Source: an uncultured Gemmatimonadales bacterium (lineage in GTDB: Bacteria > Gemmatimonadota > Gemmatimonadetes > Longimicrobiales > RSA9). From it: a stretch of 64,000 bases of DNA. Every line of letters starts with the position of its first letter. Position 1 is the first letter of the stretch. This document shows positions 11,259 through 56,190 of the stretch, piece by piece. Location of the stretch: NCBI GenBank assembly GCA_963798845.1, contig CAWCUS010000001.1, forward strand, positions 631,850 to 695,849, written 5' to 3'. The notes under the pieces were generated by a model. The model had not been told where the DNA came from. It worked only from the letters and a program-made list of their open reading frames with translations, and did no database searches. A program made the position numbers and the translations under genes.

Positions 11259-11270
11259 TTCCTTTCCGCG

Positions 11271-14366: not shown

Positions 14367-14429
14367 GCGGAGTGCCTCCTGGGTGGTTTTGTGGAAGATA
14401 GGGTGCGATGCGGATAGGGCATCGTCCGC

Positions 14430-14459
14430 AAGGTACTTGTACATGAGGAACGCTGTCAA
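14430..14459 (-). promoter_or_regulatory. Candidate sigma70-type promoter for SusC/SusD locus 1 (TTGACA-N18-TACCTT)
   Basis: On the minus strand, TTGACA (14459..14454), an 18-nt spacer, then TACCTT (14435..14430), about 65 nt upstream of the SusC ATG. SusC locus 2 shows the same architecture. Confidence 0.45.
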
Positions 14460-14604
14460 ATACCGACTTGTGACGCTTCCGCGCGCCACCGCGACAGGGC
14501 TGCCGGCCGGAGCCCGTCACACGATCCGCGCCGACCGCCTTGCCCCGCGGGCTCCGGCCGCCCAGCTTCCTCCCCTCCTGCGACCCTGACTCCGGTACCC
14601 CTCG

Positions 14605-35502: not shown

Positions 35503-35639
35503 GGCGTTAGCCTGCCGAAATCGATAACAAAAGGGCCGGTTCACCTTCCCCGCCGACGGGCGCGAGCCAGCGGCGTGGGTGGCCCGCCCTCTTAACAGTC
35601 TCACATAGGCGCGTTCCGTTCCCTGCCAAGGAGGTCACA

Positions 35640-35666
35640 ATGCGTGGCGTACTCGTCCCGCCGTAG
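35640..35666 (+). CDS. Candidate 8-codon leader peptide (MRGVLVPP-stop) in the SusC leader
   Basis: ATG is preceded by a canonical AAGGAGG at 5-nt spacing, the strongest SD seen in the window. The ORF ends Pro-Pro-TAG. Short inverted repeats follow (CCTGC..GCAGG). Confidence 0.3.
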   Translation: MRGVLVPP

Positions 35667-35751
35667 CCGGTGTGCATCGTCACCAGACACGGATGTCCCC
35701 TGCCCGGCCCCTAGGCAGGTCCGGTACATCATCCCCCGATTGGAGGCGTTT

Positions 35752-38700: not shown

Positions 38701-38799
38701 CCGGAGGTGTCGCTGTATCTCACCAGCGACGAGCGCTCCGACTTCCTGACGCTGCCGTCAGCGCGGAGCGGGTTCGTCAAGCTCACCTTCCGGTTCTGA
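35752..38799 (+). CDS. SusC/RagA-type TonB-dependent outer-membrane receptor
   Basis: Signal peptide, CarboxypepD_reg-like domain (ITGTVHNQSLEPVRGAVVSVQGMRLSTVSNEQGFYRL), plug (IADIEVIKGPAAAALYGADASAGVIQIITKQG), and a barrel ending ..GFVKLTFRF. ATG is preceded by GGAGG. Confidence 0.93.
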   Translation: MIRRFGSVVLLLAALFLPAGLAAQGAVITGTVHNQSLEPVRGAVVSVQGMRLSTVSNEQGFYRLQLPEGARGQITLGVEIIGYRPATVEVTVTGGTMRQDISLVEQAIALNEIVVTGTAGTQSRRAQAAVVSTVDAAQVTEVAPVSSITQLLQSRVPGMDVQVSGGNLGSTQVIRMRGQASLTLSNEPLIFIDGVRADQRNDALYYAVGGQQTSRLNDLRPEDIADIEVIKGPAAAALYGADASAGVIQIITKQGQQNSTFTQTLSAEYQALDWGYWTPPDNWAACTSSAVANADNPLCYGNAVGTLVHDNPLLRTDAIQQGYRQSLNWSGTGGGSNYGYYVSLGGDKGEGAFVNNKQNNVSARGNFNFQPTPKLRIEMGMGLVRAETQLPRNDNDIYGWLGGAMLGSPTSLGTTRDGWYAPNRQNAAIAAYENINTNMRTTPRLQVNYSPFQWMTNRLTMGGDLSRMEAHYFYPKNDNGWYSGVYNTGQIAQARQNYDRYTVDYLGNIANALTSTVSSDLSLGTQILYTRYDRTSATGIGLTTNAANAIDQAAQTTGGQTFNEEAQVGFFGQWQVGFSERLYLQMAGRLDQHSAFGVNADWFFSPKIGASWVVSDEPFWQGHMPAMISTLRVRAAYGTTGRSPTQGALATYTASPFAFVDRTVGSGVQAEDLGNPDLKPERGTEIEAGFEAGLFDERLGLELTYFNKVGTDVILRRPLPPSAGFTQNQLVNIGEVLNSGFEISANARMLTASNLSWDVRVGMNTLHSEIKDLGGVEPYWTGWAQQNKEGYEAHAFFTRQVEHFVLDSSDPQASICGTDADGQFAQCAIVTSEETYKGHYMPTFEGNLSSTLTFLRNFRVYALLDWKNNFMIYNNTDQFRERQFGQGERWVRRNDPTFNQSDEERLRRFGPFYYMDENGAYQPLSAGNVDDAYVEPGDFTRLREVSLHYSIPDQIAALAHVSGATLSVGGRNLALWTKYSGPDPEVSLYLTSDERSDFLTLPSARSGFVKLTFRF

Positions 38800-38808
38800 G
38801 GAGGAGCC

Positions 38809-40155
38809 ATGAACACGACGATCCGTAGCGGTTTCGCCGTCGCGCTCCTCGCCGCCGCCAGTCTGGCGGCCACGGCGTGCGACAACTTCCTGGATGTGAA
38901 GACGCCGTACACGATTGCGGCGAACAGCGTCGATCCGGTCAACGACGCGGTGGCGTTCTCCAACTCCTCCTGGCAGAACTACGTGGAGGCGCTGGGCGAT
39001 TTCGCGGTCTACGAGGCGTGGTTCACCAACTCGCTGCGCGTCGGGGACACGTTCCCCACGCGGAACGAGTTCGGCCGACGGTTCCTCGACGACCGGACCA
39101 ACGGCACGCTCAACACAGAGCTGTGGACCCCCATCTCCAGGGCGGTGGCATCGGCCGAGGACGGCCTCGTGCTGCTCGCGGAGCTGGATGACAGCGACAT
39201 CAACCGGACCCGCCTGTATCTGACAACGGGCTTCGCGTCGCTGACCATGGCCGAGTCGTTCTGCACGGGCGTGATCCGCGAGGGGCCGGACGCGCCATCG
39301 CCGGAGCTGACGAGGGCGCAGATGCTGGAGCACGCCATCGAGCGGTTCCAGCAGACCATCTCCTCCGGCACGGCCAACGGCACGGCCAACGGCGTCGCAA
39401 TGGCCAATGCGGCGCGCGTGGGCCTGGCCCGGGCGCACCTGTTCCACGGTGACCTGGCGTCGGTGGCGGGCAATGTGAGCGGGCTGCCCGCCGGCTTCGA
39501 GTTCAATGCCGTGTACGTGGATGACGCGGGCAACCGCGGCCGTCTGGGCAACACGGTGTTCGCGTTCTCCGGCCGCACCGCCAACCGCGAGAGCGGGGTG
39601 GTGGGACCGGAGTGGCGGGCGCTCGGTCAGGGAGTGGACGTTTCCCCCACGCAGCCGTTCGCCGGCGAGGTCGACGGCGATGCGCGCGTGAGCTGGCGTT
39701 TCGAGGGTCGCACGGCGCAGGACGGCGTGCACGCCTTCGTGTTCCAGACCACGCATGACGGCTGGGATGCCCCGCTCGTGGTGGCCAGCGAGCTCGAGGC
39801 GAAGTACCTCGTGCAGCAGGCCAGTGGCACGGACGCGACCCGGATCGATTTCATCAACGAGCGCCGGACGGCCAATGGCCTCGCCGCGCTTTCGGCCGGT
39901 GACTTCGCCGGTCCGGACGCCATCCTGGAGGAGCTGCTCTTCCAGAAGAGCCTCGACTTCTGGCTCACGGCCCGCCGCATGGCGGACTGGCGCTGGTACA
40001 CGGGTGATGGCGCCACGGCGCGCAGCACGCACTTCCGCTACGTCCTCGAGCCCACCGACGAGTACTACAAGCCGGAAGTGGGCGGGATGGGCAACCAGGT
40101 GTGCTGGCCGCTGCCCTACAACGAGTACTCGCGGAACACGGACATCAACCGGTAG
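38809..40155 (+). CDS. SusD/RagB-family outer-membrane lipoprotein
   Basis: Lipobox (AASLAATAC). Lies 9 nt downstream of SusC. SusD-like C-terminal motif (EELLFQKSLDFWLTARRMADWRW). Confidence 0.85.
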   Translation: MNTTIRSGFAVALLAAASLAATACDNFLDVKTPYTIAANSVDPVNDAVAFSNSSWQNYVEALGDFAVYEAWFTNSLRVGDTFPTRNEFGRRFLDDRTNGTLNTELWTPISRAVASAEDGLVLLAELDDSDINRTRLYLTTGFASLTMAESFCTGVIREGPDAPSPELTRAQMLEHAIERFQQTISSGTANGTANGVAMANAARVGLARAHLFHGDLASVAGNVSGLPAGFEFNAVYVDDAGNRGRLGNTVFAFSGRTANRESGVVGPEWRALGQGVDVSPTQPFAGEVDGDARVSWRFEGRTAQDGVHAFVFQTTHDGWDAPLVVASELEAKYLVQQASGTDATRIDFINERRTANGLAALSAGDFAGPDAILEELLFQKSLDFWLTARRMADWRWYTGDGATARSTHFRYVLEPTDEYYKPEVGGMGNQVCWPLPYNEYSRNTDINR

Positions 40156-44558: not shown

Positions 44559-47162
44559 TCAGGACGGCGGGGGGGAGCCGGCCCGCTCGGGCACCGGAAC
44601 GGAGTCCTGGAACGGCGTCGAGTCCGGCACCGAATCCGGGCCCACTGCCGAATCCGGCACCGGGGTCGAATCCGGCCCCGGGGTCGGGGCCGGCATGAGC
44701 CGGGAGTCCGGCAGTCGCACGGAATCCGGGAGAGGCAGCGAGTCGGGAGCCGGGATCGAATCCGTGACCAGCACGGTGTCGGGCTCCGGCAGCGAATCCG
44801 GGAAGGGGAAGGAGTCCACGGGGATGCCCAGCGGTGCGGTGTCGGGCGGGCTCACCCCCTGTCCCTCGCGCGGGAGACGCGGCCGTCCGAGGTAGCGCTC
44901 CTGCTGCCGCTCCCGTTCCTCCTCGCCCTGGCCGAAGAGCCCTGCGACGAAGTGCCCCAGGCGGGCGAACGCGTGACGGATCCCCTGGATGAGGCGCCCG
45001 AAGAAGCCGCGCTCGGCCTCGCCGGCGGGACAAATGGTGGCCGGCACATCGGACTTGAGGAAGAGTTCGGTGCGCGCCTTCCCCTTCTCGGGGCGACACC
45101 CGTCCGCCAGGACGAGACCGCTGCCGGGGTCGATCCGCCGTTCCACCACGGACGAGGGCCGTTCCCAGGCGTCGGGTCTGTCCCGCCTCCGGTAGGCGGC
45201 GCGGACGATCCGCCCCCAGACCGGCGCGGCCAGCTCGCCCCCGGTCGCGCCGGCGGCGATCGGCTGCGGCCTGTCGAGGCCGATCCACACGCCCCCCGCC
45301 AGGTCCGGCGTGTACCCCACGAACCACGCGTCGAAGCCCTCGTTGGTGGTCCCCGTCTTCCCCGCGGCCGGTGCGCGCACGCCGGCCTCCCGGACGGCGT
45401 GACCGGTGCCCCGGTCCACGACGTCGCGCAGCAGGCTCGTCACCAGGTAGGCGACGCCGGGCGAGAACGCCCGGTGCCGCTTCGGCCGTGCCCGCCAGAC
45501 CACCTTTCCGGTGGTGTCCTCCACGCTCGTCACCAGGCGCGGCCGCACGGCCCGGCCCTCCGCGGAGAACGCGGTGTAGGCCGCGGTCAGATCAATGAGC
45601 GGAATGCCAATGGCGCCCAGGGCCAGCGACGGCAGGATCACCATCTGCTCCTGGACCCCGGCGTCCTTCGCCGCCCGCACCACGTCGTCCAGACCCACCG
45701 CGAGGGCGAGCCGAGCGGTAGCGATGTTGACGGAGTGGACTGCCGCTTCCCGCATGGTCACGTCCCCGCCGGAGCGGCCGCTGAAGTTCTGCGGCTCCCA
45801 CACCTCGCCACCCGGGAGCTTCACCACCAGCGGCTCGTCACTCAGCCGCTGGCTGGGCGCGTAGCCGTTGCGCAGCGCGGCGGCGAAGACGAACGGCTTG
45901 AACGCGCTGCCCACCTGACGCCTCGCCTGGGTGGCGCGGTCGTACGGGGAGTCGTCGAAGTCGCGGCCACCCACCAGCGCCAGCACATCCCCGCTGTCCG
46001 ACCGCATGACCACGGCCGCCCCCTGCAGGTAGCGCGTCCCGGCCGAGTCCACCGCGTCCGCTTCCCCGTAGCGCTTCTCCCCGCGATAGCGGCCGTACGC
46101 CCCTCTCTCGATCGACGCCAGCTGCCGCCTGACCTCCCGCTCGGCCGCGCGCTGGAGCGCCGGGTCCAGCGTGGTGTGGATGCGGAGCGGGCCGGCGTAC
46201 AGCCCGTCGCCCAGCTGCCGCTCCAGCAGGCGGCGCACCGCCCGAATGAAGTAGGGAGCCGGCCCTGGCTTCTCGTCCGGCAGCGGTCGCTCACGGACGA
46301 CGCGGAGCCGCGTCGATTTCGCCTCGTCCGCCGAGTCCCCCGACACCCGCCCCTGTGCCGCCATGAGCGAAAGCACCAGGTCACGCCGCTCCTTCGCGCG
46401 ATCGGGATGCTCGCGCGGATCGTAGCTGTTGGGCGCTTTCGGCATGGCCGCCAGCGTGGCCGCCTGCGCCAGCGTCAGCTCCTCGGCCGGGCGGCCGAAG
46501 TAGGCCCTCGCTGCCCTCTCGATGCCGTAGACCGCCCCGCCGAAGTAGATGTGGTTGAGATACAGCTCCAGGATGTCGTGCTTGCTGAAGCGGTCCTCGA
46601 TCTCCCCGGCCACGCGCATCTCCAGCAGCTTTCGCGTCAGCGTCTGCTCCTGCCCCGGCAGCCGGCCCGGAAAGACGTTCCTCGCCAGCTGCATCGTGAT
46701 CGTGCTGCCGCCCTGTGCCGCGCCGCCCGCGCGCACGTCCGCCAGAAACGATCCCGCCATGCGACGCCAGTCCACCCCGCCGTGCTCGTAATATCGGCGG
46801 TCCTCCACCGCCACGAACGCTGCCGGGACGTAGCCCGGGAGCGAGTCCAGCGCCACCAGCGCGCGAGACACGGGGGCCAGTCGCGCCACCTCGTCTCCGT
46901 TGCGGTCCAGGACCACGGGCGCTCCGCCGGGCTGCAGCGCCGCCAGCCGCTCCACTGCCGGGCAGCCGCGCAGCCCGCACGTCTGCCACGTCAGCCAGGC
47001 GAACAGCACTGACACGCCCGCGGCCACCAGCACCCAGCGCAGCGGTGGCGGCCAGTGCAGACCGCCGCCGCGCCAAATGGTAGGGTCGCGCCGCCACAGC
47101 GCGCCCAGCATCCGACGCAGCCGCCCGGGAATGGTTCGTGCACTCGTTTGCATTCGACTCAT
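44559..47162 (-). CDS. Class A penicillin-binding protein (PBP1A family: GT51 transglycosylase plus transpeptidase) with a PDS-repeat C-terminal tail
   Basis: GT51 motifs (EDRRYYEHGGVD, GGSTITMQLARN). Transpeptidase motifs SAFKPF (SxxK), HSVN (SxN) and KTGTT. The start is uncertain (47162, 47189 or 47111). Confidence 0.9.
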   Translation of the reverse strand: MSRMQTSARTIPGRLRRMLGALWRRDPTIWRGGGLHWPPPLRWVLVAAGVSVLFAWLTWQTCGLRGCPAVERLAALQPGGAPVVLDRNGDEVARLAPVSRALVALDSLPGYVPAAFVAVEDRRYYEHGGVDWRRMAGSFLADVRAGGAAQGGSTITMQLARNVFPGRLPGQEQTLTRKLLEMRVAGEIEDRFSKHDILELYLNHIYFGGAVYGIERAARAYFGRPAEELTLAQAATLAAMPKAPNSYDPREHPDRAKERRDLVLSLMAAQGRVSGDSADEAKSTRLRVVRERPLPDEKPGPAPYFIRAVRRLLERQLGDGLYAGPLRIHTTLDPALQRAAEREVRRQLASIERGAYGRYRGEKRYGEADAVDSAGTRYLQGAAVVMRSDSGDVLALVGGRDFDDSPYDRATQARRQVGSAFKPFVFAAALRNGYAPSQRLSDEPLVVKLPGGEVWEPQNFSGRSGGDVTMREAAVHSVNIATARLALAVGLDDVVRAAKDAGVQEQMVILPSLALGAIGIPLIDLTAAYTAFSAEGRAVRPRLVTSVEDTTGKVVWRARPKRHRAFSPGVAYLVTSLLRDVVDRGTGHAVREAGVRAPAAGKTGTTNEGFDAWFVGYTPDLAGGVWIGLDRPQPIAAGATGGELAAPVWGRIVRAAYRRRDRPDAWERPSSVVERRIDPGSGLVLADGCRPEKGKARTELFLKSDVPATICPAGEAERGFFGRLIQGIRHAFARLGHFVAGLFGQGEEERERQQERYLGRPRLPREGQGVSPPDTAPLGIPVDSFPFPDSLPEPDTVLVTDSIPAPDSLPLPDSVRLPDSRLMPAPTPGPDSTPVPDSAVGPDSVPDSTPFQDSVPVPERAGSPPPS
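44577..44849 (-). repeat. Degenerate in-frame tandem repeat encoding the x-P-D-S tail of PBP1A
   Basis: The last ~96 codons contain 8 exact PDS tripeptides plus PDT, VDS, TDS and QDS variants. At DNA level the plus strand shows recurring GAATCCGG/GAGTCCGG units. Confidence 0.8.
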
Positions 47163-47183
47163 GCCAAACAGGGAGTCGGAAAT

Positions 47184-47555
47184 ATGCACAAACTATGCAG
47201 CGTTCGCGCCGGCACGCTCGTCGCCCTCCTCGCCGCCGTCGCCCTGAGCGCCTGCGGCATGTTCGGCGGCAGCAATCAGCCCGAGCCCGCCTTCGCCACC
47301 GTCACGATCAACAACGACAGTCCCACGACCGTCACCGCCTATGCCGTCCGCTCCAGCGGCGTGCGGTATCGCCTCGGCACCGTGCCGGGCCTGACGGAAA
47401 AGGACTTCGACCTGCGCTCCGACATGGTCGGCCCCACGGGCGAGATGCAGCTGGTTGTGGACGTTCTCGGAACTTCCCGCATCTACTCGTCCGATCAGGT
47501 CTTCATCGAGCAGGGCGACAGCGTCGAGTTCACGGTCAGCCACATGGTGCGGTAG
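47184..47555 (+). CDS. Hypothetical small lipoprotein
   Basis: MHKLCSVRAGTLVALLAAVALSAC lipobox. 123 aa. Codon position 3 is coding-like. Divergent from PBP1A. Confidence 0.6.
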   Translation: MHKLCSVRAGTLVALLAAVALSACGMFGGSNQPEPAFATVTINNDSPTTVTAYAVRSSGVRYRLGTVPGLTEKDFDLRSDMVGPTGEMQLVVDVLGTSRIYSSDQVFIEQGDSVEFTVSHMVR

Positions 47556-47916
47556 AGCCGGCCTGCCTGTCCGGCTTCCCGGCCTGCCGCTTCCATCGCT
47601 TTATTACCCCCCGTAACATATCTTCAGCGAACCGGGGGCATCCGTCTCCCGGCTCGGCCGCGGGACGCGGCAGGAGAGGCATCGTGGCTACGCAGGGAGG
47701 CCGTTTCACGCGGTCGCTTCCTGGCAAGCGGTCGCCGTGCGGCGTTGCACACCACGAGCCGGGGCATGCCCCGACCTACGGGGCGCCCCAGTTCCCTGCC
47801 CTATCCCACAGACGCGGCCGACGCGCGTTCCCAGTCCTTCGAGACCGACCTGATCCGTCTCCGGCTCGCAACCGGGGAACGCGCGCGTACCCATTCCATC
47901 CCGGGGAGAGATCGTA

Positions 47917-48534
47917 ATGCCGACGCAGACAAAGGAGCGGGATTCCACGCTGATGAAGATCCCACAGGACCTCATCGAGCGGGGCCGCGGACTCGCGGGC
48001 ATGGGGCACGACGTATGGCTTGCCGGCCTCGGCGCCTTCGCGGCGGTCGAGGAGGAGGGAAGCGCGCTGTACGACAGACTGGTGAAGCGGGGTCGGACCG
48101 TGGAGAAGAGCGGGCGCAAGCGCGTCGAGGAGATGCGCGAGGAGATGGAGGACCGGCAGCAGAAGGTGACGCACGGGCTCGAGGAGAGGGTGTACGACCC
48201 GATCATGAACGCGCTCCGCTCGTTCGGTGTGCCGACCCGTCGCGAGATCCGGGAGCTGACGGGGAAGGTGGACGCGTTGACCCGTCAGGTGCAGGTGCTG
48301 GTCAGCCAGATGCCGGGCGCCGCGCCGGGAGAGTACGAAACGTACTACGTCATGGCGCGCGAGGACACGTGGATCGTGGGGCGGGAGGGCGCCGACGAGC
48401 CGCTGTTCGTCGAGCCGACCAAGGAGCTGGCGCTGGAGCGGGCCAGGCAGGTGGTGCACAGCCAGGCGCCGAGCCGCCTGCACGTGTACCGCCGTGACGG
48501 CAGCATCCAGGACACGTTCACGTACGAAGAGTGA
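47917..48534 (+). CDS. Phasin-like (PHA-granule-associated protein family) N-terminal domain fused to a C-terminal DUF2188-like domain
   Basis: The N-terminus (HDVWLAGLGAFAAVEEEGSALYDRLVKRGRTVEKSGRKRVEEM + coiled coil) matches the PhaF/PhaI-type phasin pattern. The C-terminus (YYVMAREDTWIVGREGADEPLFVEPTKELALERARQVVHSQAPSRLHVYRRDGSIQDTFTY) matches the DUF2188 pattern. ATG is preceded by GGGGAGAG. Confidence 0.7.
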   Translation: MPTQTKERDSTLMKIPQDLIERGRGLAGMGHDVWLAGLGAFAAVEEEGSALYDRLVKRGRTVEKSGRKRVEEMREEMEDRQQKVTHGLEERVYDPIMNALRSFGVPTRREIRELTGKVDALTRQVQVLVSQMPGAAPGEYETYYVMAREDTWIVGREGADEPLFVEPTKELALERARQVVHSQAPSRLHVYRRDGSIQDTFTYEE

Positions 48535-48537
48535 CCC

Positions 48538-49785
48538 GTGGCCGCCAGCCGCGTCGGCTTGGCGTGCGCGGGCGGCGTCGTCGAGGGGGCGTTCTACGAG
48601 ATCGGGGTCCTGTGCGCCCTCGATGAGGCCGTCGAGGGGCTCGATCTGACCGCGCTCGACGTCTACGTGGGCGTCAGCGCGGGCGCCATCCTCACGGCGT
48701 GCCTGGCCAACGGGATCCCACCCCGGGACGTGGCCCGGGCGATGCTCTCGGTGGAGGCATCCCCGGACGCCCTCGCTCCCGAGGCGGTGTTCCGCCCGGC
48801 GCTGGCCACCTACGCCGCCCGCGCGGCGGGAGTGCCCGTGCGCGTCCTGGGCGCCATCGCCCGCTACGCTGCGGACCCCCGCGACATCTCGCTCTTCGGC
48901 TCGCTCCTGGAGCTGGCCACGGCGCTGCCGGTGGGGCTGTTCGACAACCGGCCGCTGGAGCAGCACCTCGCACGCGTGTTCTCCGCCGAGGGCCGCACCA
49001 ACGACTTCCGGGAGCTCCCCGCCACGCTGCGCATCGTGGCGGTCAATCTGGACACGGCGGAGCTGGTGGCCTTCGGCGACGACGCCACCGCCCACGTCCC
49101 CATCTCCCGGGCTGTCCAGGCCAGCTCCGCGCTCCCGCTGATGTATCTCCCCGTTGAAATCGACGGGGAGTATTACATCGACGGAGTGGCGAGGCGGACG
49201 CTGAACGCGAGCCAGGCGCTCCAGGCGGGCGTGGACCTGCTTCTGTGCGTGAACCCCATCGTCCCTCTGGACCTGCGCATTCCGGGCGACGACGGCGTGC
49301 GCCATCCCAGCCTCGTCCACAGCGGGCTCCCTGCCGTGCTCTCGCAGACGTTTCGGACCATGATCCATTCGCGGATGGTGACGGGGTTCCGGAACTACGC
49401 GTTTCTGTACCCCGACGCCGACGTCGTGCTGCTGGAGCCCGAGGCCGGCGACCGGACGATGTTCTTCACGAACATCTTCAGCTTCTCCCACCGCCACGAG
49501 GTGATGCACCACGGCTACGCGACGGCGCGCGGCTGGCTGCTGCGCAACGCCGGCCGTCTGGAGCCCGTGTTCCGCCGCCACGGCATGCGCCTGCGGGAGA
49601 GCGTGCTGACGGAGGACCGGCGCCTGGCGGTGGAGCGGCGACCGCTGCCCGGCGCGCGCGAGCTCGTGGGCCGCGCCAGCGCTGCGCTGGACGAGCTCTC
49701 GAGTGCCCTCGATCGGCTCCGCGCGAGGGGGGGCGGCACGAGCCGGAGGGGCGGTGCGGTCGGCTCCCCGCGGCGGCGCGGGTGA
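48538..49785 (+). CDS. Patatin-like phospholipase/lipase
   Basis: Oxyanion region (LACAGGVVEGAFYEIGVL), nucleophile elbow GVSAG, catalytic Asp in YIDGV. The GTG start lies 3 nt after the upstream stop. Confidence 0.85.
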   Translation: MAASRVGLACAGGVVEGAFYEIGVLCALDEAVEGLDLTALDVYVGVSAGAILTACLANGIPPRDVARAMLSVEASPDALAPEAVFRPALATYAARAAGVPVRVLGAIARYAADPRDISLFGSLLELATALPVGLFDNRPLEQHLARVFSAEGRTNDFRELPATLRIVAVNLDTAELVAFGDDATAHVPISRAVQASSALPLMYLPVEIDGEYYIDGVARRTLNASQALQAGVDLLLCVNPIVPLDLRIPGDDGVRHPSLVHSGLPAVLSQTFRTMIHSRMVTGFRNYAFLYPDADVVLLEPEAGDRTMFFTNIFSFSHRHEVMHHGYATARGWLLRNAGRLEPVFRRHGMRLRESVLTEDRRLAVERRPLPGARELVGRASAALDELSSALDRLRARGGGTSRRGGAVGSPRRRG

Positions 49786-49796
49786 GGAGGCGAGGC

Positions 49797-50993
49797 ATGG
49801 CATCGCGCACGCGGATCCTCCTGTTCACCGGCAAGGGCGGTGTGGGAAAGACCACGTGCGCGGCGGCCACGGCCGTTCGCGCCGCGGAGCTGGGGCACCG
49901 GACGCTGGTGCTTTCGTCGGACCCGGCGCACTCGCTGGCGGACGCGCTGGACCTGCCGCTCGGCCCGGAGCCCACGGAAGTGTTCCCGGGTCTGCACGCG
50001 CAGGAGCTCGACCTCTACTACTCCATGAACAAGCACTGGGGCAACATCCGGGAGCTGCTGCTGGTGATGTTCAAGTGGCAGGGCGTCGAGCGGGTGGCGG
50101 CCGAGGAGATGGCGGCGCTGCCCGGGATGAGCGAGGGGGCCGCGCTCCTCTGGATCGACCAGCTGCACGGCTCGGGCGACTATGACCTCATCGTCGTGGA
50201 CAGCGCGCCGACGGGCGAGACGCTCACCCTCCTCACCCTGCCCCAGGTCACGGAGTGGTGGGTGAAGCGGGCGCTCCCATTCCAGCGCTTCGCCGTGAAG
50301 ACGGCCGGCTTCGCCATGCGAAAGGCGGCGGGGATCCCGCTGGACCGTGCGTACGCGGAGCTGGAGTCGCTGGTGACCCACCTGGAAGCGGTACGGGACC
50401 TCCTGACGGACCCCGACACATCGTCGATCCGGCTGGTGCTCAACCCGGAACGGATGGTGATCCAGGAAGGGCGGCGCGCCTTCGCATACCTCCAGCTGTA
50501 CGGCTACAACATCGACGCCGCGCTGGTGAATCGGATCCTGCCGGAGGAGGGAGTCGGCGACGCGCTCCAGGGCTACCTGGACGCCCAGCGCGGCTACCTG
50601 ACCGAGATCCAGGAGGCGTTCGCGCCACTCCCGATCCTGCACGCCCCGCACCGCGGCCGGGAGGTGTTCGGGGTGGACATGCTCCGCCGCCTGGGGACGG
50701 AGCTCTACGGTGACCGCGATCCGACGTACGTCTTCTACCGCGGCGAGCCGTACCGTCTGGTGAGCGAGGACGGCGGCTACCGGCTCGACCTTCGGCTCCC
50801 CGAGAGCGCGGCCGGGCAGGTCACGGCCCGGCACGCGGGCGACGAAGTGGTCCTCCAGCTCGGAAACCAGCGCCGCAACTATTCGCTCCCCCGATTCCTC
50901 GCCTACTACACCCTGACCGGCACCCGCTTCGAGCAGGGATGGTTCCGCATCCGGTTCGAGCCCGTGGCGGGCCGCGCGAAGGAGGCAGAATGA
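49797..50993 (+). CDS. ArsA/Get3(TRC40)-family ATPase with a C-terminal HSP20-like (ArsA_HSP20) domain
   Basis: Deviant Walker A (FTGKGGVGKTT), SSDPAHSL, DSAPTGETL switch region. C-terminal alpha-crystallin-like strands (YRLDLRLPESAAGQVTARHAGDEVVLQLGNQRRNYSLPRFL...GWFRIRF). SD is GAGGAGG. Confidence 0.85.
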   Translation: MASRTRILLFTGKGGVGKTTCAAATAVRAAELGHRTLVLSSDPAHSLADALDLPLGPEPTEVFPGLHAQELDLYYSMNKHWGNIRELLLVMFKWQGVERVAAEEMAALPGMSEGAALLWIDQLHGSGDYDLIVVDSAPTGETLTLLTLPQVTEWWVKRALPFQRFAVKTAGFAMRKAAGIPLDRAYAELESLVTHLEAVRDLLTDPDTSSIRLVLNPERMVIQEGRRAFAYLQLYGYNIDAALVNRILPEEGVGDALQGYLDAQRGYLTEIQEAFAPLPILHAPHRGREVFGVDMLRRLGTELYGDRDPTYVFYRGEPYRLVSEDGGYRLDLRLPESAAGQVTARHAGDEVVLQLGNQRRNYSLPRFLAYYTLTGTRFEQGWFRIRFEPVAGRAKEAE

Positions 50994-52285
50994 CCGCGCC
51001 CACGACCACCGCCCAATCCCCAGGGACGACGCCGTCCGCCGCCGCAGCGCTGGACTCGCCGACGAGATCCCGTGCGGTGCGCCGTCCGGCCCAGGTCCCG
51101 CTGCCCCCGCCGTCGCGGCCCACGCGCATCCCGCGCGAGAACGACGACTACGGCCCCAATGCCATCGCCCGGAGGCGTGCCTTCATCGAAGCGTCGAGCG
51201 GGGTGAGGCTCGAGCACGTCTCCGCCTGCTCCTTCGACCCGCGGCTGGCGGCGGGCAACTGCGAACACTTCACCGGCGTGGCCCAGGTGCCGCTCGGGTT
51301 CGCCGGACCGCTCCTGGTGCGCGGGGAGCACGCGGACGGCGAGTACCTGATCCCGCTCGCCACGTCGGAAGGGACGCTCGTCGCCTCGTACAACCGCGGC
51401 ATCCATACCCTCAACGCCGCCGGCGGCGTGCGGACCACGATCCTCGACGACGGCATGCAGCGCGCGCCTGCGTTCGTCCTGGCCGACGCCCGGGAAGGGC
51501 GCGACTTCGCTGCCTGGGTGGCCGACAACATCCCCGGCATCCGCACGGCCGCGGAAGCCACCTCGCGGGTGGCCAGGCTGCTTCACGTGGAGCCGTTCCT
51601 GGCCAGCCGGTTCGTGTTTCTTCGATTCAGCTTCGAGACGGGCGACGCGGCGGGGCAGAACATGGTCACGCGGGCTACAGCGGCCGCGTGCCAGTGGATC
51701 GTCCAGCAGTGCGGCGGGGTGGAGCGCTTCTTCCTGGAATCGAACCTCGCCTCCGACAAGAAGACGTCGCACGTGAACATGCTGCGTGGACGGGGGAAGC
51801 GGGTGACGGCCGAGGCGGTGGTGCCGCGGACGGTGCTGGAGGAGCGGATGCGGGCGTCGCCCGACACGCTGGTCGCGCACTACCACGCCAGCTCGGTGGG
51901 CGCATTCCTGGCCGGTCCCAGCAACAACGGCCTTCACACGGCCAACGCGCTCGCGGCCATGTTCATCGCGACAGGCCAGGACGCAGCCAGCGTGGGCGAG
52001 TGCTCCGCGGGGATCATCCACGTGGAGCTCGCCGGTCCCGACCGCGAGGACCTGTATGTGTCCATCACGCTCCCCTCCCTCATCGTGGCCACCCATGGGG
52101 GCGGGACGGGGCTGCCCACCCAGCGCGAGTGCCTGGAGGTCATGGGGTGCTATGGCCGGGGGAAGGTTCGGATGCTGGCGGAGATCGTGGCCGCCGTGGT
52201 GCTGGCGGGCGAGCTGTCGCTGGCCTGCGCGATCGCCTCCAACGAGTGGGTGGAAGCCCACGAACGCATGGGGAGGAACCGATGA
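50990..52285 (+). CDS. Soluble class-I-like HMG-CoA reductase
   Basis: NCEHFTGVAQVPLGFAGPL, PLATSEGTLVASYNRG, DAAGQNM, ATHGGGTGLPTQ, and a C-terminal catalytic His region. ATG overlaps the upstream stop (ATGA) and is preceded by GGAGG. The N-terminal ~45 aa are Pro/Ala/Thr-rich. Confidence 0.88.
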   Translation: MTAPTTTAQSPGTTPSAAAALDSPTRSRAVRRPAQVPLPPPSRPTRIPRENDDYGPNAIARRRAFIEASSGVRLEHVSACSFDPRLAAGNCEHFTGVAQVPLGFAGPLLVRGEHADGEYLIPLATSEGTLVASYNRGIHTLNAAGGVRTTILDDGMQRAPAFVLADAREGRDFAAWVADNIPGIRTAAEATSRVARLLHVEPFLASRFVFLRFSFETGDAAGQNMVTRATAAACQWIVQQCGGVERFFLESNLASDKKTSHVNMLRGRGKRVTAEAVVPRTVLEERMRASPDTLVAHYHASSVGAFLAGPSNNGLHTANALAAMFIATGQDAASVGECSAGIIHVELAGPDREDLYVSITLPSLIVATHGGGTGLPTQRECLEVMGCYGRGKVRMLAEIVAAVVLAGELSLACAIASNEWVEAHERMGRNR

Positions 52286-53652
52286 CGTGGACCTCGCCGC
52301 CGCCGGGCGGCCGCCGGTTCTCCGGCGCGGACAGCTCCTGGTGGCACATGGAGGAGCCCACCAATCAGATGGCCATCACCGTGGTCCTGACGTTCGATGG
52401 CCCGATCGACGAGGACCGTCTCCACGCCGTGCTCCGCGATCGGCTCCTGCGCCACGACCGCTTCCGGCAAATGGTGGTGGAGTCTCCGCTCGGGTTCGGC
52501 CGCCCTCAATGGGTGGAGGACCCGGGGTTCTCCCTGGAGCGGCACCTGAGCCGGATCCGCCTGCACGACGGCGGCGGGAAGGCGGAGCTCCAGCGGGTCG
52601 CAGGGCTGGAGATGAGCCGCCCTCTCCACCCGGACCGCCCCCTGTGGCGCATGGTCTACGTCGACGGCTTCGAAGGCGGCTCCGCCCTCGTGATCCGCAT
52701 CCACCACTGCATCGCCGATGGCCTCGCCCTCGTACGGGTCCTCATGACCCTCGGCGATCCTACGGACGGTGCGTGCGGCGAGCGGGCGAGCCCGGCCGTC
52801 CTCGACCCCGCCACGTACGCCTCGCCTTCGGTCACGATGACGGCGGGAGAGGCGGCGGAGCGCGACTTCGTCCGAGCCCTGGCGCTGGGCACCCGCGCTG
52901 CGGGGTCGCTCGGCCGCCTCGTGGGGCTGCGCCCGGACCCGCGGACCGCGCTGCGCGGGCCGCTGTGCCGGGAGAAGCGCGCGGCGTGGTCGCGTCCAAT
53001 GTCGCTGCGGCGGCTCCGGGCCGCCTCTCGCGCCGCCGGCGCCACGCTCAACGACGTGGTGGTCGCCGCCGTGGCGGGCGGACTGGGGCGCTTCCTGGCG
53101 GAGAAGGGAGAGCAGCTCACGCGTGAAGTCCGCGCGGTGGTCCCCGTGAACCTGCGCCGCAACGGCGACGAAGAAGCGCTGGGCAACCGCTTCGGGCTGA
53201 TCTTCGCTCCGTTGCCGCTGGGCATCCCGAATCCTCTCGAGCGTCTCGGCGCGGTGCACGCTACCCTGAGCCGGCTCAAGCGCTCGCCCCAGCCGATGGT
53301 GATCTACGGCCTGCTGGAGCTCCTCGGCCGTACGCCGCGCGCCGCCCTCGACCTGGCCGTCTGGCTCCTCGGCAGCAAGGGCTCGCTGGTTCTCACGAAC
53401 GTGCCGGGTCCCCGTCGCAGGATTCGCATCTGCGACCGTGAGCTCCTGTCTGTCGTCGGCTGGGTTCCCCAGTCCGGCCGATTGGGGCTCGGTGTCAGCA
53501 TCCTCAGCTACGCGGACGAGATCCGGCTGGGCGTCGCCACGGATGCCGCGATCCTCCCGTGCCCGGACCACCTGGTGGGCGCCATCCAGGATGCTGCCGA
53601 CCAGATCCTCGACACCGTTCGCCCGCCCCGGGTGGCGGAGGTGGTGGCATGA
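52282..53652 (+). CDS. Wax ester synthase/acyl-CoA:diacylglycerol acyltransferase (WS/DGAT)
   Basis: Catalytic HHCIADG (HHxxxDG) motif, N-terminal WHMEEPTNQMAI pattern and the C-terminal WS/DGAT domain (NVPGP..). ATGA overlap with the HMGR stop. Confidence 0.88.
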   Translation: MTWTSPPPGGRRFSGADSSWWHMEEPTNQMAITVVLTFDGPIDEDRLHAVLRDRLLRHDRFRQMVVESPLGFGRPQWVEDPGFSLERHLSRIRLHDGGGKAELQRVAGLEMSRPLHPDRPLWRMVYVDGFEGGSALVIRIHHCIADGLALVRVLMTLGDPTDGACGERASPAVLDPATYASPSVTMTAGEAAERDFVRALALGTRAAGSLGRLVGLRPDPRTALRGPLCREKRAAWSRPMSLRRLRAASRAAGATLNDVVVAAVAGGLGRFLAEKGEQLTREVRAVVPVNLRRNGDEEALGNRFGLIFAPLPLGIPNPLERLGAVHATLSRLKRSPQPMVIYGLLELLGRTPRAALDLAVWLLGSKGSLVLTNVPGPRRRIRICDRELLSVVGWVPQSGRLGLGVSILSYADEIRLGVATDAAILPCPDHLVGAIQDAADQILDTVRPPRVAEVVA

Positions 53653-55553
53653 GCACCGCAGCTCGGGATCCGGACGCCCGTCCGCTCGCCCTGGTCCGCG
53701 GCGAAACGGGCAGCGACGCGCCCCCGGCACCCCCCGCGCCTCCGGCGGAGGAAGCGGCGCTGGAGGGGGCGCCAGCGGAGTCGGCGCTGGCCGGGCTCGT
53801 CCCGCGCACCGCGCCGCACCTCCACGCCACCTATCGGAGCGTCATCGGTCGCTTCTTCGGCGTGCACCGGCACGTCCTGGGTCTGCTGGTGGGGGCGAGG
53901 GTCGCGAGGGCGGACGGGCTGCCGCCGGACCAGCGCCGCCGCTTCCGGTCGCTTCCACTGCGCGCGTCCGCCGCGGTGCTGCGCCCGCTCCTGCTCCGAG
54001 AGCTGCGCCACGCTCCCTTCCCGGAGCAGCTGCGCCGTCGCCTGGAGCTGCTCGGTCCCACGTACGTGAAGCTCGGCCAGATCATGGCCATCCGTGAGGA
54101 CCTGCTCCCCGCCCCCGTCTGCCGGGCGCTCCAGGTGCTCTTCGACCACGTGCCGCCGGTGCCGTTCGAGACCGTGCGCCTGACCCTCGAGCGGGAGCTG
54201 GGCCGCCCGATACACCAGGCGTTCCGCTGGGTAGACGAGGAACCGCTCGGCTCGGCGTCCATCGCGCAGGTGCACCAGGCCGAGACCGTCACCGGCGACG
54301 CCGTGGTCGTGAAGGTCATGAAGCCCGGAATCCGCCGCTCGATCGAGACCGACCTGCGCCTGCTCCGCTGGCTCGGCGCGCTTCTCCAGCACGTGCTGCC
54401 GCGCTACCAGCCGCGCCGGATCATCGACGAGTTCGGCACCTACACGCTTCGAGAGCTCGACTTCACCGCCGAGGCGGACAACGCCGAGACGTTCGCCGCC
54501 AACTTCCACGACACCCCGGAAGTGTGCTTCCCGCGCATCTACCGCGAGCTCACCACGCCCTCGCTCCTCACCATGGAGCTGCTGCGGGGGTTCAAGCCAT
54601 CCGATCCCCGGGCACGCGCCCTCTCCGCCGACGACCGCGAGCGCCTCACCGACCTCGGCGCCGGCGCCATCATCCGCATGCTGTACCGCGACGGCTTCTT
54701 CCACGCCGATCTCCATCCGGCCAACCTCCTCATCCTCGGCCGTGAGACGGTTCGCGCCGCGGGGGCTGGAGTCGGCGGGGGGGGCGCGTGGGGCGCCGCG
54801 GGCAGCGCGGCGGCAGCCTCGAAGGCCGCCCATGCAGCCGACCACAGCGATCGCGACACGCTCCGTGTGGGCTTCGTGGACCTCGGGATGGTGGGACGCT
54901 TCGAGGACCGGATGCGCCGTCGCATGCTCTACTACTACCACGCGCTGGTCACCCGCGACGTGGAAGGGGCGGCCAAGTTCCTCGGCCAGATGGCCGAGCT
55001 CGGCCGTGGCGCCGACCCCGTCGCCTTCCGGCGCGCCGTCGTGGACCTCTCGCGTCGCTTCGTCACCCGCGCCGAGCGCGGCGAGTTCAGCATCGCCCAG
55101 CTCATCCTCGAGTCCATCGGCCTCGGCGCCCGCTACCGCGTCTACTTCCCCGTGGAGATGACGCTCATGGTCAAGGCGCTGGTCACGTTCGAGGGCGTCG
55201 GTCGCATGCTCGACCCCCACCTCGACGTCACGGCGATCTCACGCCGTCACGTCAGCCGCATCCTCCAGCGACAGTTCACGCTCGAGCGGGTCAGCCGCGA
55301 GGTGCTGCGCGAAGCCCCCGAGCTGATCGAGCTCGCCGTCGGTCTCCCCCAGCTGCTGGTCAGCGGCAGCCGCTTCCTCGAGGAGAGCTTCGACCGACGC
55401 CCTCCCCGCGACCCCGCCACGGGCCTCCGCTCCGCGGTGCTCGCCGGCGCATGCCTCATCGGCGGCGTTCTCACCCTCACCGCGGCCGGACCGCCCGCGC
55501 TCTGGATCCCCCTCTTCGGCCTCGCCGCCGTCATGGCGGTGTGGCGGGGCTAG
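53649..55553 (+). CDS. ABC1/UbiB(ADCK)-family atypical protein kinase with C-terminal TM helices
   Basis: LGPTYVKLGQ, GSASIAQVH, VVVKVMKPG, FHADLHPANLLI, VDLGMVG, and two C-terminal hydrophobic helices. ATGA overlap with the WS/DGAT stop. Contains a Gly/Ala-rich insertion between the catalytic loop and the DLG motif. Confidence 0.88.
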   Translation: MSTAARDPDARPLALVRGETGSDAPPAPPAPPAEEAALEGAPAESALAGLVPRTAPHLHATYRSVIGRFFGVHRHVLGLLVGARVARADGLPPDQRRRFRSLPLRASAAVLRPLLLRELRHAPFPEQLRRRLELLGPTYVKLGQIMAIREDLLPAPVCRALQVLFDHVPPVPFETVRLTLERELGRPIHQAFRWVDEEPLGSASIAQVHQAETVTGDAVVVKVMKPGIRRSIETDLRLLRWLGALLQHVLPRYQPRRIIDEFGTYTLRELDFTAEADNAETFAANFHDTPEVCFPRIYRELTTPSLLTMELLRGFKPSDPRARALSADDRERLTDLGAGAIIRMLYRDGFFHADLHPANLLILGRETVRAAGAGVGGGGAWGAAGSAAAASKAAHAADHSDRDTLRVGFVDLGMVGRFEDRMRRRMLYYYHALVTRDVEGAAKFLGQMAELGRGADPVAFRRAVVDLSRRFVTRAERGEFSIAQLILESIGLGARYRVYFPVEMTLMVKALVTFEGVGRMLDPHLDVTAISRRHVSRILQRQFTLERVSREVLREAPELIELAVGLPQLLVSGSRFLEESFDRRPPRDPATGLRSAVLAGACLIGGVLTLTAAGPPALWIPLFGLAAVMAVWRG

Positions 55554-55638: not shown

Positions 55639-56190
55639 ATGATGAGTGAAATCGAGAACGACGCCTCGACCCCGCCCACGACGCCCGCCGGGCCGCCGGC
55701 GCCGCCTCCGCCCCTGGACCTTCGCGTGGCGGAGGTGACGGAAGCGGACGAGCATCCGAACGCGGACCGGCTGCTGATCCTCCGGGTCGACCTGGGAGAC
55801 GAGCGCCGCCAGCTGGTAGCGGGGCTGGCGGGGATCTACGACCCGGCGGAGCTGGTGGGGAAGCGGATCGTCGTCGTGGCGAACCTGAAGCCGGCACGTC
55901 TGCGCGGGGAGGCGAGCCAGGGAATGCTGCTCGCCGCCCACGGCGACGGGAAGGTCGGCGTGCTCCTCGCTCCGGACGCGGTGCCGGGCACGCCGCTCGA
56001 GACCGGGGCCCGCGCGGACACCGGAACCTCGCAAGCAGCCCCGCCCGCCGAAACGCCGCCGCAGATCACGATCGACGACTTCGGCCGCCACACGATCATC
56101 GCCTCGGCCGAAGGTGTGAGCCTGGACGGAACGCGGGTCGAGCGGCCCCGGCTGGTGGTCGACCGAGAAGCCTGGGGTCCGGTGAAGTAG
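55639..56190 (+). CDS. tRNA-binding-domain (CsaA/Trbp111-like) protein with Pro-rich N-terminal and extra C-terminal segments
   Basis: LDLRVAEVTEADEHPNADRLLILRVDLGDERRQLVAGLAGIYDPAELVGKRIVVVANLKPARLRGEASQGMLLAA matches the OB-fold tRNA_bind pattern. Confidence 0.8.
   Translation: MMSEIENDASTPPTTPAGPPAPPPPLDLRVAEVTEADEHPNADRLLILRVDLGDERRQLVAGLAGIYDPAELVGKRIVVVANLKPARLRGEASQGMLLAAHGDGKVGVLLAPDAVPGTPLETGARADTGTSQAAPPAETPPQITIDDFGRHTIIASAEGVSLDGTRVERPRLVVDREAWGPVK

Follow-up and report, generated by a model that had tools for sequence, protein, structure and literature searches.

A 64,000-nucleotide stretch of DNA from an uncultured Gemmatimonadales bacterium (GenBank assembly GCA_963798845.1, contig CAWCUS010000001.1, positions 631,850 to 695,849 of the forward strand; hereafter the window) carries a six-gene operon that we read as a module for the synthesis, packaging, and turnover of wax esters, or more broadly neutral lipid, in a member of the Gemmatimonadota. 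We put the probability of this reading at about 0.6. Two lines of evidence carry it. [quoted passage not shown] The remaining partners, which include a phasin-like protein, a patatin-like hydrolase, a Get3-fold ATPase, and an ABC1-family protein, recur around FcrA in related loci, and the idea of a lipid body is strongly supported by this conservation.

Organization of the operon

The six genes lie on the same strand, and their junctions measure, in order, +3 nt, +11 nt, −4, −4, and −4, the last three being ATGA overlaps of start and stop codons (Table 1). The coordinates agree with the layout described in the original prediction for this DNA. Five genes have a purine-rich, Shine–Dalgarno-like motif ahead of the start codon; in the sixth, the patatin gene, which begins with GTG, the motif is weak (GAAGAG). 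In addition, the proteins of genes 1, 3, 4, and 6 (4/6) are present with identical boundaries in a public protein collection. Family calls were made with Pfam and NCBIfam profile hidden Markov models, and all six family assignments proposed earlier held. The window was also said to contain no polyhydroxyalkanoate (PHA) synthase and no further mevalonate-pathway gene; Pfam and tblastn searches of the other coding-like open reading frames (ORFs) of the 64-kb window confirmed this and found no PhaR either.

Table 1. Genes of the operon and the region preceding it (window coordinates)
Feature	Position	Strand	Length	Assignment and proposed role
Upstream intergenic region	47190–47916		727 bp	Presumed promoter and leader
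Gene 1	47917–48534	+	205 aa	Phasin-like::DUF2188 fusion; proposed lipid-body coat
Gene 2	48538–49785	+	415 aa	Patatin-like serine hydrolase; proposed ester/phospholipid hydrolase for turnover
Gene 3	49797–50993	+	398 aa	Get3/ArsA-fold ATPase with C-terminal alpha-crystallin (HSP20-like) domain; Get3d architecture
Gene 4	50990–52285	+	431 aa	FcrA-type fatty acyl-CoA reductase; class-I HMGR homologue without N-terminal Lad domain
Gene 5	52282–53652	+	456 aa	WS/DGAT
Gene 6	53649–55553	+	634 aa	ABC1/UbiB-family atypical kinase/ATPase with C-terminal hydrophobic hairpin

Sequence-based assignment of gene 4 to FcrA

According to Grossi et al. (2025, ISME J; PMC11948995), a large clade of bacterial and haloarchaeal sequences labeled class-I HMGR corresponds to FcrA, which reduces fatty acyl-CoA to alcohol with NADPH, is inactive on HMG-CoA and insensitive to simvastatin, and supplies fatty alcohols to WS/DGAT. 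The enzyme keeps the catalytic tetrad of HMGR and replaces three HMG-binding residues (S684 by Glu, L862 by Trp, and a Lys by a small residue), and many members carry an N-terminal beta-rich "Lad" alkyl-carrier domain. The characterized FcrA comes from "Ca. Promineifilum breve", the fcrA gene adjoins WS/DGAT in Halovenus and in a Holophagaceae contig, and bacteria that possess only the FcrA clade lack the mevalonate pathway (PMC11948995). The same paper prints the human HMG-binding lysine as "Lys795"; from the offsets of the neighboring equivalent residues, it was taken as K735 in our residue test.

Gene 4 matches HMG-CoA_red (PF00368) with 414 bits, the Pfam match spanning residues 59–429 only, and reaches bit scores of 274 against archaeal HMGR and 220 against human HMGR. 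In the alignment to the human and archaeal enzymes, the HMGR catalytic tetrad (human E559, K691, D767, and H866) is kept as E127, K257, D331, and H424, but the pocket residues S684, K735, and L862 of the human enzyme are replaced by E250, A300, and W420. The diagnostic positions hold Glu, Trp, and Ala/Val/Ile in 89 of 89 aligned homologues, and the substitutions are common to the 88 homologous loci that were compared. Gene 4 therefore has none of the three residues of a canonical class-I HMGR, and its TIGR00533 score (344 bits) lies under the HMGR equivalog cut-off of 441.8. No mevalonate-pathway gene was found within 10 kb in the six related loci for which gene tables were available. Because the tetrad is kept together with the three pocket substitutions, the score falls below the equivalog cut-off, and mevalonate genes are missing nearby, gene 4 is, on the evidence of its sequence, an FcrA. 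Its nearest named homologues, like those of gene 3, belong to Gemmatimonadota, the phylum assigned to the window on that ground, and its identity to homologues from metagenome-assembled genomes of Promineifilaceae, the family of the characterized enzyme, is 60–61%.

This assignment bears directly on the original prediction, which had treated gene 4 as an orphan class-I-like HMGR and had allowed for the storage of isoprenoid esters. Neither part survives: FcrA and the coupled WS/DGAT make up a full route from acyl-CoA to wax ester that is unrelated to mevalonate, so the puzzle of an orphan HMGR falls away and the isoprenoid-ester idea with it. A true HMGR feeding mevalonate-derived isoprenoids, to be esterified by WS/DGAT and stored in a plastoglobule-like body, would account for the strong PF00368 match and the intact tetrad; in plastids and mitochondria, the metabolism of prenyl lipids involves ABC1 kinases, and some wax ester synthases use isoprenoid alcohols. 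We nevertheless consider this explanation extremely improbable, since the three pocket positions read Glu, Ala, and Trp as in an enzyme that does not reduce HMG-CoA, the score falls under the HMGR equivalog cut-off, no additional mevalonate-pathway gene stands in the window or beside any homologue examined, and bacteria with only this reductase clade lack the pathway. Homologues in Chloroflexota and Bacteroidota had at first been taken for mevalonate HMGRs, with the cluster as isoprenoid-linked; this was dropped, as 89/89 carry the FcrA substitutions. Database labels follow the older view, and the Joint Genome Institute (JGI) annotation calls the homologues of gene 4 HMG-CoA reductase.

The Lad domain (PF25653) is present in homologues of approximately 513 aa and absent from the FcrA of the lineage with the six-gene order. 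The tree of the reductases is a rough neighbor-joining one with no canonical HMGR outgroup. The Lad-less lineage is the same one in which FcrA is ATGA-coupled to the gene for the Get3d-like ATPase. The N-terminus in this lineage (residues 1–57 of gene 4, 50990–51160) is variable and of low complexity, with a high content of Pro, Ala, and Ser.

Proteins encoded beside FcrA

The start of gene 5 overlaps the stop of the FcrA gene. Its product matches both WS_DGAT_cat (PF03007) and WS_DGAT_C (PF06974), scores 363 bits against TIGR02946 (cut-off 310), and contains the motif HHCIADG, with HHxxxDG intact, at residue 141; relatives in the PDB are the enzymes of Marinobacter (6chj, E 4e-26) and Acinetobacter (7nxg, E 7e-21). 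The window pair thus repeats what is known of the FcrA and WS/DGAT pathway (PMC11948995): a class-I HMGR fold with the tetrad and the three substitutions, a gene adjoining WS/DGAT as in Halovenus and the Holophagaceae contig, and no mevalonate genes nearby. It differs in that the window FcrA has no Lad domain, the operon has no fadD, and the pair is embedded among genes for a phasin::DUF2188 protein, a patatin, a Get3d-like ATPase, and an ABC1 protein, none of which is mentioned in that paper. The acyl-CoA to alcohol to ester chemistry and the WS/DGAT family are likewise shared with the wax-ester and triacylglycerol inclusions of Acinetobacter, Marinobacter, and Rhodococcus (AtfA; Acr1/FarA/AcrB), whereas the window has FcrA as its reductase and a different set of coat, regulatory, and accessory proteins, and everything lies in a single coupled operon.

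The product of gene 1 joins a phasin domain (PF05597, 83 bits, residues 27–128, cut-off 28.8) to a DUF2188 domain (44 bits, residues 143–203). An AlphaFold model of moderate confidence (pLDDT 72) places long helices at residues 17–102 and 108–131 and an alpha/beta domain at 141–205. The helical part is amphipathic, with a mean hydrophobic moment of 0.38 against 0.25 ± 0.04 for shuffled sequences, a value reached in 1 of 1000 shuffles. Approximately 40 cluster representatives, all of roughly 205 aa, share the fusion, and DUF2188 is confined to loci with the six-gene order.

Phasins are best known from PHA granules, and the protein could in principle belong, with PhaR in the relatives, to an ordinary PHA granule system lying beside unrelated lipid genes. 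The families PF05597 and PHB_acc_N are named for PHA granule proteins, and JGI annotates the phasin::DUF2188 fusion as a PHA granule-associated protein. We regard this explanation as highly improbable: PHA synthase is missing from the window, no recurrent family of PhaC size occurs among 168 related loci, the phasin and PhaR genes are consistently contiguous with those for patatin, FcrA, ABC1, and acyltransferase, and gene 1 scores below the cut-off of the PHA phasin profile TIGR01837. What the operon and its relatives share with the PhaR/PhaP system is an amphipathic protein of the phasin family and, in related loci, an adjoining PHB_acc_N (PhaR-type) regulator, a position that suggests, by analogy, that the surface of the granule titrates the regulator in the same way. 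The differences are that no PHA synthase is found, the partners are enzymes of wax-ester and acyl-lipid metabolism, and the window has no PhaR, its phasin carrying DUF2188 instead.

Gene 2 encodes a patatin (PF01734, 93 bits) with the putative Ser-Asp dyad in place, the serine in GVSAG at residue 45 and the aspartate in IDGVA at residue 215. Patatin phospholipases also serve as effectors of anti-phage defense, and an island of this kind, with the patatin as the effector alongside an ATPase, was considered on account of weak PADLOC and NCBIfam matches, which connect gene 2 with phospholipase effectors of defense systems and the DUF2188 domain in gene 1 with the candidate system PDC-S16. It was rejected on the PADLOC scores and appears scarcely credible; the matches stay far under their thresholds (for the CBASS lipase, 23 bits where 200 are required; in PADLOC, approximately 30 bits), the neighbors are lipid-metabolic enzymes, and the cluster is vertically conserved across phyla rather than patchy like defense islands. 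The similarity of the DUF2188 part (48340–48534) to PDC-S16 amounts to 26–29 bits and probably arises merely because PDC-S16 proteins contain DUF2188.

Gene 3 encodes an ArsA/Get3-type ATPase (ArsA_ATPase, PF02374, 267 bits, residues 5–304) followed by an alpha-crystallin-like domain (ArsA_HSP20, PF17886, 55 bits, residues 325–387). Its TIGR00345 score of 232 bits exceeds the cut-off of 135, while its score against the NosAFP equivalog NF050088 (131 bits) is under the cut-off of 325. The motifs GKGGVGKT (residue 12) and DPAHS (residue 42) are present, and the protein has a single Cys and no CxxC motif. Its nearest named relatives come from Gemmatimonadota and Longimicrobium, with 79–83% identity to the Gemmatimonadota homologues. 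The two-domain architecture is that of Get3d, described from the Arabidopsis chloroplast and from Nostoc (All4481) as Get3 with a C-terminal alpha-crystallin domain; Get3d has a closed hydrophobic chamber, copurifies with a molecule of ~750 Da, binds tail-anchored proteins, is linked to photosynthetic organisms, and has no reported partners (PMC10248533). Gene 3 aligns to All4481 over its full length (PDB 3igf/8egk, residues 7–387). It differs from Get3d in falling under the NosAFP equivalog cut-off, in an ATPase domain nearer to archaeal Get3 (best PDB match 3zq6), in relatives that are Gemmatimonadota, in the absence of photosynthesis genes from the window, and in being operon-coupled to a lipid enzyme; its P-loop and DPAH motifs are, as a further difference, intact. 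We consequently call it Get3d-like and do not treat it as an orthologue of NosAFP/All4481.

Gene 6 matches ABC1 (PF03109) with 207 bits and contains the motifs KLGQ (residue 141), ASIAQVH (203), HADLHPAN (352), and DLG (411). Because it scores below both UbiB equivalog cut-offs (314 against 487.55 for TIGR01982 and 245 against 667 for NF003404), it is, by profile, a member of the ABC1 family and not a UbiB orthologue. The membrane anchor foreseen in the original prediction corresponds to a hydrophobic hairpin at residues 592–631. As the sole operon protein with such a C-terminal hairpin, gene 6 is a candidate client of the Get3-fold ATPase. An ABC1K protein and a DGAT-like enzyme occur together on cyanobacterial lipid droplets (PMC12223511), and the operon, by its gene content, recalls plastoglobules and cyanoglobules, an ABC1-family kinase being combined with an acyltransferase for neutral lipids and a putative coat protein on what would be a hydrophobic body. 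Unlike those bodies, it has no fibrillin/PAP, tocopherol cyclase, or prenylquinone enzymes, its acyltransferase is WS/DGAT and not DGAT2/PES-like, and the alcohol would be a fatty alcohol from FcrA rather than phytol.

Conservation of the gene set

Two sets of related loci were compared. The FcrA-anchored set consisted of 88 loci (80 taken from the genomes of GTDB species, the other 8 from look-ups), and the ABC1-anchored set consisted of 80 metagenome loci whose ABC1 protein shares 44–71% identity with that of the window. All counts are from tblastn against DNA, since a greedy ORF caller had mis-called several genes in high-GC loci; partner families that do not occur in the window were identified with Pfam, and the BagAB-like proteins with NCBIfam as well. 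The loci are related to each other, so the counts represent non-independent events, and the taxa given for them follow the titles of their records.

The gene-neighborhood check asked for by the original prediction showed that the genes are conserved together. The identical six-gene order occurs in the metagenome contigs L001, L003, and L087, which group as Gemmatimonadota-like by sequence similarity, and in L089 the contig ends at the patatin gene with the remaining order unchanged. The ATGA overlap between the ArsA-like and FcrA genes is kept in four of four full six-gene copies. Rearranged versions in Gemmatimonadota, Acidobacteriota, Balneolales, and KSB1 combine FcrA, ABC1, acyltransferase, patatin, and phasin, often with a PhaR-like regulator and a Get3-fold ATPase in addition.

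Among the 88 FcrA-anchored loci, the commonest partner was ABC1 (30), followed by WS/DGAT (20), the PhaR-like regulator (16), patatin (14), the phasin-like protein (13), an AMP-binding acyl-CoA synthetase (13), a PlsC-type acyltransferase (12), a GMC oxidoreductase (10), and an ArsA-like ATPase (9); the 21 Chloroflexota loci of this set had none of these partners. In the reciprocal search, FcrA was found in 44 of the 80 ABC1-anchored loci, and in 33 of the 42 with at least 3.5 kb of upstream sequence, together with patatin (31), the phasin-like protein (30), a PlsC-type acyltransferase (26), the PhaR-like regulator (25), and WS/DGAT (18). The patatin orthologues counted in both sets (40–57% identity) adjoin the phasin gene. 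Where the flanks were long enough on both sides (20 ABC1-anchored loci), 14 held FcrA, acyltransferase, patatin, and phasin, and 12 of these 14 complete loci also had a Get3-fold ATPase.

In the commonest ABC1-anchored layout, the genes for FcrA, ABC1, and a PlsC-like enzyme or WS/DGAT lie on one strand, and the opposite strand carries, pointing toward them, those for patatin, phasin, and PhaR. A second layout, of the Longimicrobium type, comprises ArsA_HSP20, FcrA with a Lad domain, a FadD-like enzyme, ABC1, and a PlsC-like acyltransferase. The module is thus widespread, and the window has a streamlined variant of it with all genes in one direction, without PhaR and with DUF2188 fused to the phasin. 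The storage-body module of the original prediction is supported in this form, shorn of its isoprenoid-ester part: the recurring partners, namely a wax-ester or other acyltransferase, an amphipathic phasin-like coat, a patatin, and ABC1, to which relatives add an acyl-CoA synthetase and a GMC oxidoreductase as well as a regulator of the PhaR type, fit a neutral-lipid body.

The Get3-fold ATPase recurs in two forms. A match to gene 3 itself, mostly of the Get3d-like form, was found in 11 ABC1-anchored loci; in 16 loci of the set a BagB-like ArsA/Get3-fold ATPase stands upstream of PhaR, accompanied by a BagA-like protein in 13 of the 16. The place of the window's Get3d-like gene is thus taken in related loci by a BagA-like/BagB-like pair, and we therefore consider a Get3-fold ATPase a recurrent member of the module. 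The pair recalls BagA/BagB of Mycobacterium tuberculosis (Rv3679/Rv3680), but the scores in the related loci are under the equivalog cut-offs (207 against 521 and 87 against 400), and the window has a single Get3d-type gene and no pair. Pairs upstream of PhaR, phasin, and patatin were observed in L123 (15492–17506), L034, L074, L107, L111, L115, L130, L139, L140, L143, L145–L147, L149–L151, L165, and L167.

Additional variants were noted around FcrA. A GMC-family oxidoreductase of approximately 550 aa is encoded directly upstream of the six-gene cluster in L003 (4842–6476) and L087 (1480–3168) and near the module elsewhere. Five loci of Pyrinomonadaceae/Blastocatellia (L033, L045, L047, L058, and L075) have a different FcrA neighborhood that contains no ABC1 or patatin and consists of a PhaR-like gene, two genes for small helical proteins, WS/DGAT, a lipase-like alpha/beta hydrolase (~256 aa), and an acyl-CoA synthetase; the small helical proteins have no Pfam match and are possibly phasin-like.

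Proposed function and competing explanations

In the scheme that we favor, FcrA would reduce long-chain acyl-CoA to fatty alcohol at the expense of NADPH, as its homology to characterized enzymes and its diagnostic residues predict, and the coupled WS/DGAT would, by homology, transfer acyl groups from acyl-CoA to this alcohol, and possibly also to diacylglycerol, so that wax esters and/or triacylglycerol are formed. Domain properties and the conserved neighborhood suggest that the amphipathic phasin-like::DUF2188 protein coats the resulting hydrophobic bodies and that the patatin hydrolase mobilizes the esters or remodels surface phospholipid. The hairpin-anchored ABC1 protein may, like the ABC1K proteins of plastoglobules and cyanoglobules, regulate or handle lipid at the surface of the body or the membrane. 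The Get3d-like ATPase might shield hydrophobic cargo in its chamber, either the tail anchor of ABC1 or the alkyl chains themselves; as its ATGA coupling to FcrA is conserved, it may stand in for the alkyl-carrier function in the FcrA lineage that lacks Lad. In the relatives, PhaR could couple expression to the granule surface, and the GMC oxidoreductase could oxidize the freed fatty alcohol during wax-ester catabolism.

Several observations weigh against this scheme. Most relatives carry a PlsC-like acyltransferase in place of WS/DGAT, which would also fit the synthesis of ether or membrane lipids, and in many ABC1-FcrA loci the available sequence contains no Get3-fold gene. The window FcrA is without the Lad domain of the characterized enzyme, so that its preference for long chains is a putative one. 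Gene 1 scores 75 bits against TIGR01837, under the cut-off of 94.7, and a Foldseek search of its DUF2188 fold against the PDB gave no informative match (none at E ≤ 0.001). Neither an acyl-CoA synthetase nor a promoter or terminator was identified in the window operon. The roles proposed for the ABC1 and Get3d-like proteins are inferred from neighborhood and analogy only, and as far as we could find, the formation of wax esters or lipid bodies in Gemmatimonadota has no published demonstration.

The first of these points is the basis of the strongest competing explanation, in which the module serves ether-lipid synthesis or membrane-lipid remodeling and not storage. The alcohols from FcrA would then be built into alkyl-glycerol lipids of the ether or plasmalogen type, or into other constituents of the membrane, the patatin would act in remodeling as a phospholipase, and the ABC1 and Get3-fold proteins would maintain membrane lipid and protein homeostasis under stress. 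In related loci, the acyltransferase after ABC1 is mostly PlsC-like and often accompanied by a FadD-like AMP-binding enzyme, and the set of PlsC-like, FadD-like, and FcrA proteins corresponds to the FadD/FAR/PlsC domain combination of the myxobacterial ElbD. Ether-lipid roles have also been proposed for FcrA, whose co-occurrence with WS/DGAT is less strict than that of acrB (PMC11948995). The window and its closest relatives, however, carry an above-cut-off WS/DGAT coupled to FcrA, phasin-like proteins and PhaR-type regulators are hallmarks of cytoplasmic hydrophobic inclusions and do not mark the synthesis of membrane lipids, and neither AGPS nor another ether-lipid gene was seen. Because its acyltransferase is WS/DGAT, the window itself points to wax esters, and we think the membrane explanation unlikely.

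The wax-ester module may also be part of something larger. Soil and sediment bacteria of several lineages (Gemmatimonadota, Acidobacteriota, Balneolales, KSB1, and others) might possess a dedicated, organelle-like system of wax-ester or fatty-alcohol lipid bodies, in which a Get3-fold ATPase (Get3d-like or BagAB-like) would deliver tail-anchored ABC1 or lipid to a body bounded by a monolayer, and a circuit of the PhaR/phasin type would sense its surface. This extension is conceivable, and we put it forward tentatively, as doubtful in its full form.

Upstream region and genomic context

The window has a G+C content of approximately 71%. Upstream of the operon, a divergent gene encodes a class A penicillin-binding protein (PBP1A), and downstream lie genes for a protein with a tRNA_bind domain and an alpha-amylase-family protein; both flanks are unrelated to the operon. 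The gene for the tRNA_bind-domain protein (CsaA/EMAP-like; 55639–56190, + strand) follows ABC1 on the same strand after 85 nt. As it is absent from that position in the related loci L001, L003, and L087, for which gene tables were available, it probably lies outside the module. An ORF at 47055–47555 (+ strand) overlaps the PBP1A gene at its annotated 5′ end and has a coding-like G+C content at third codon positions (GC3 0.83); it has no Pfam hit and no homologue among the 88 related loci, and it is probably spurious, unless the start of PBP1A has been mis-set.

A promoter and terminator scan gave no match to a sigma-70-type promoter and no terminator-like site on the + strand inside or directly after the operon; the terminator-like sites it returned were at background level, both on the − strand. 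Rfam had no match in the window. A perfect palindrome, CGGGGCATGCCCCG, occupies positions 47760–47773, about 160 nt upstream of gene 1, within a block (47656–47800) conserved with L001, so that it is supported by two sequences only. In L001 the arms are changed in a compensatory manner (CGGGAC..GTCCCG). The inverted-repeat finder did not report this short element, which could be an operator or a leader hairpin.

Searches of the window found no PlsC-like acyltransferase, FadD-like enzyme, GMC oxidoreductase, or BagAB homologues. Elsewhere it encodes peptidases, two SusC/SusD-like pairs, FeoB, Tex, and a CYTH-fused polyphosphate kinase. The last, a polyphosphate kinase 1 of approximately 1180 aa (2933–6484, − strand), bears the CYTH (triphosphate tunnel) domain at its N-terminus, and a polyphosphate kinase gene also lies a few kb away from the ArsA-FcrA cluster in the Longimicrobium locus L004. 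Each of the two TonB-dependent receptors with a CarboxypepD_reg domain (9897–14516, − strand, and 35596–40155, + strand) has a gene of about 450 aa after it; the SusD match is clear for the partner of the former, and the partner of the latter has no Pfam hit. Such SusC/SusD-like pairs at 71% G+C are compatible with Gemmatimonadota.

Significance

FcrA and its adjacency to WS/DGAT were reported in 2025, and wax-ester inclusions, phasins, Get3d, and ABC1K proteins on lipid droplets are each known separately. The original prediction that the gene combination was undescribed is therefore plausible in part, for the other four genes: the FcrA-WS/DGAT pair has been published (PMC11948995), and in the literature covered, most subscription journals lying outside it, we found no description of FcrA in combination with ABC1, a Get3-fold ATPase, phasin, PhaR, and patatin. 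Two reviews of isoprenoid pathways leave Gemmatimonadota and Acidobacteria unmentioned.

For the organism, the correction of the pipeline annotation from HMG-CoA reductase to FcrA, made on residues, means that it is predicted to be a maker of wax esters, which would be new for Gemmatimonadota as far as we could find. Gemmatimonadota are abundant in dry soils, where neutral lipids could help survival. For the families concerned, all of them poorly understood, the conserved neighborhood links the bacterial ABC1 proteins outside UbiB, the Get3d-like and BagAB-like ATPases, and DUF2188 to neutral-lipid metabolism. A compact operon that combines synthesis, coating, and mobilization could also serve the engineering of wax-ester production. 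If the organelle-like extension were true, it would provide the first concrete cellular role for Get3d, BagAB, and the non-UbiB bacterial ABC1 proteins, and it would point to a functional ancestry shared with plastoglobules and cyanoglobules.

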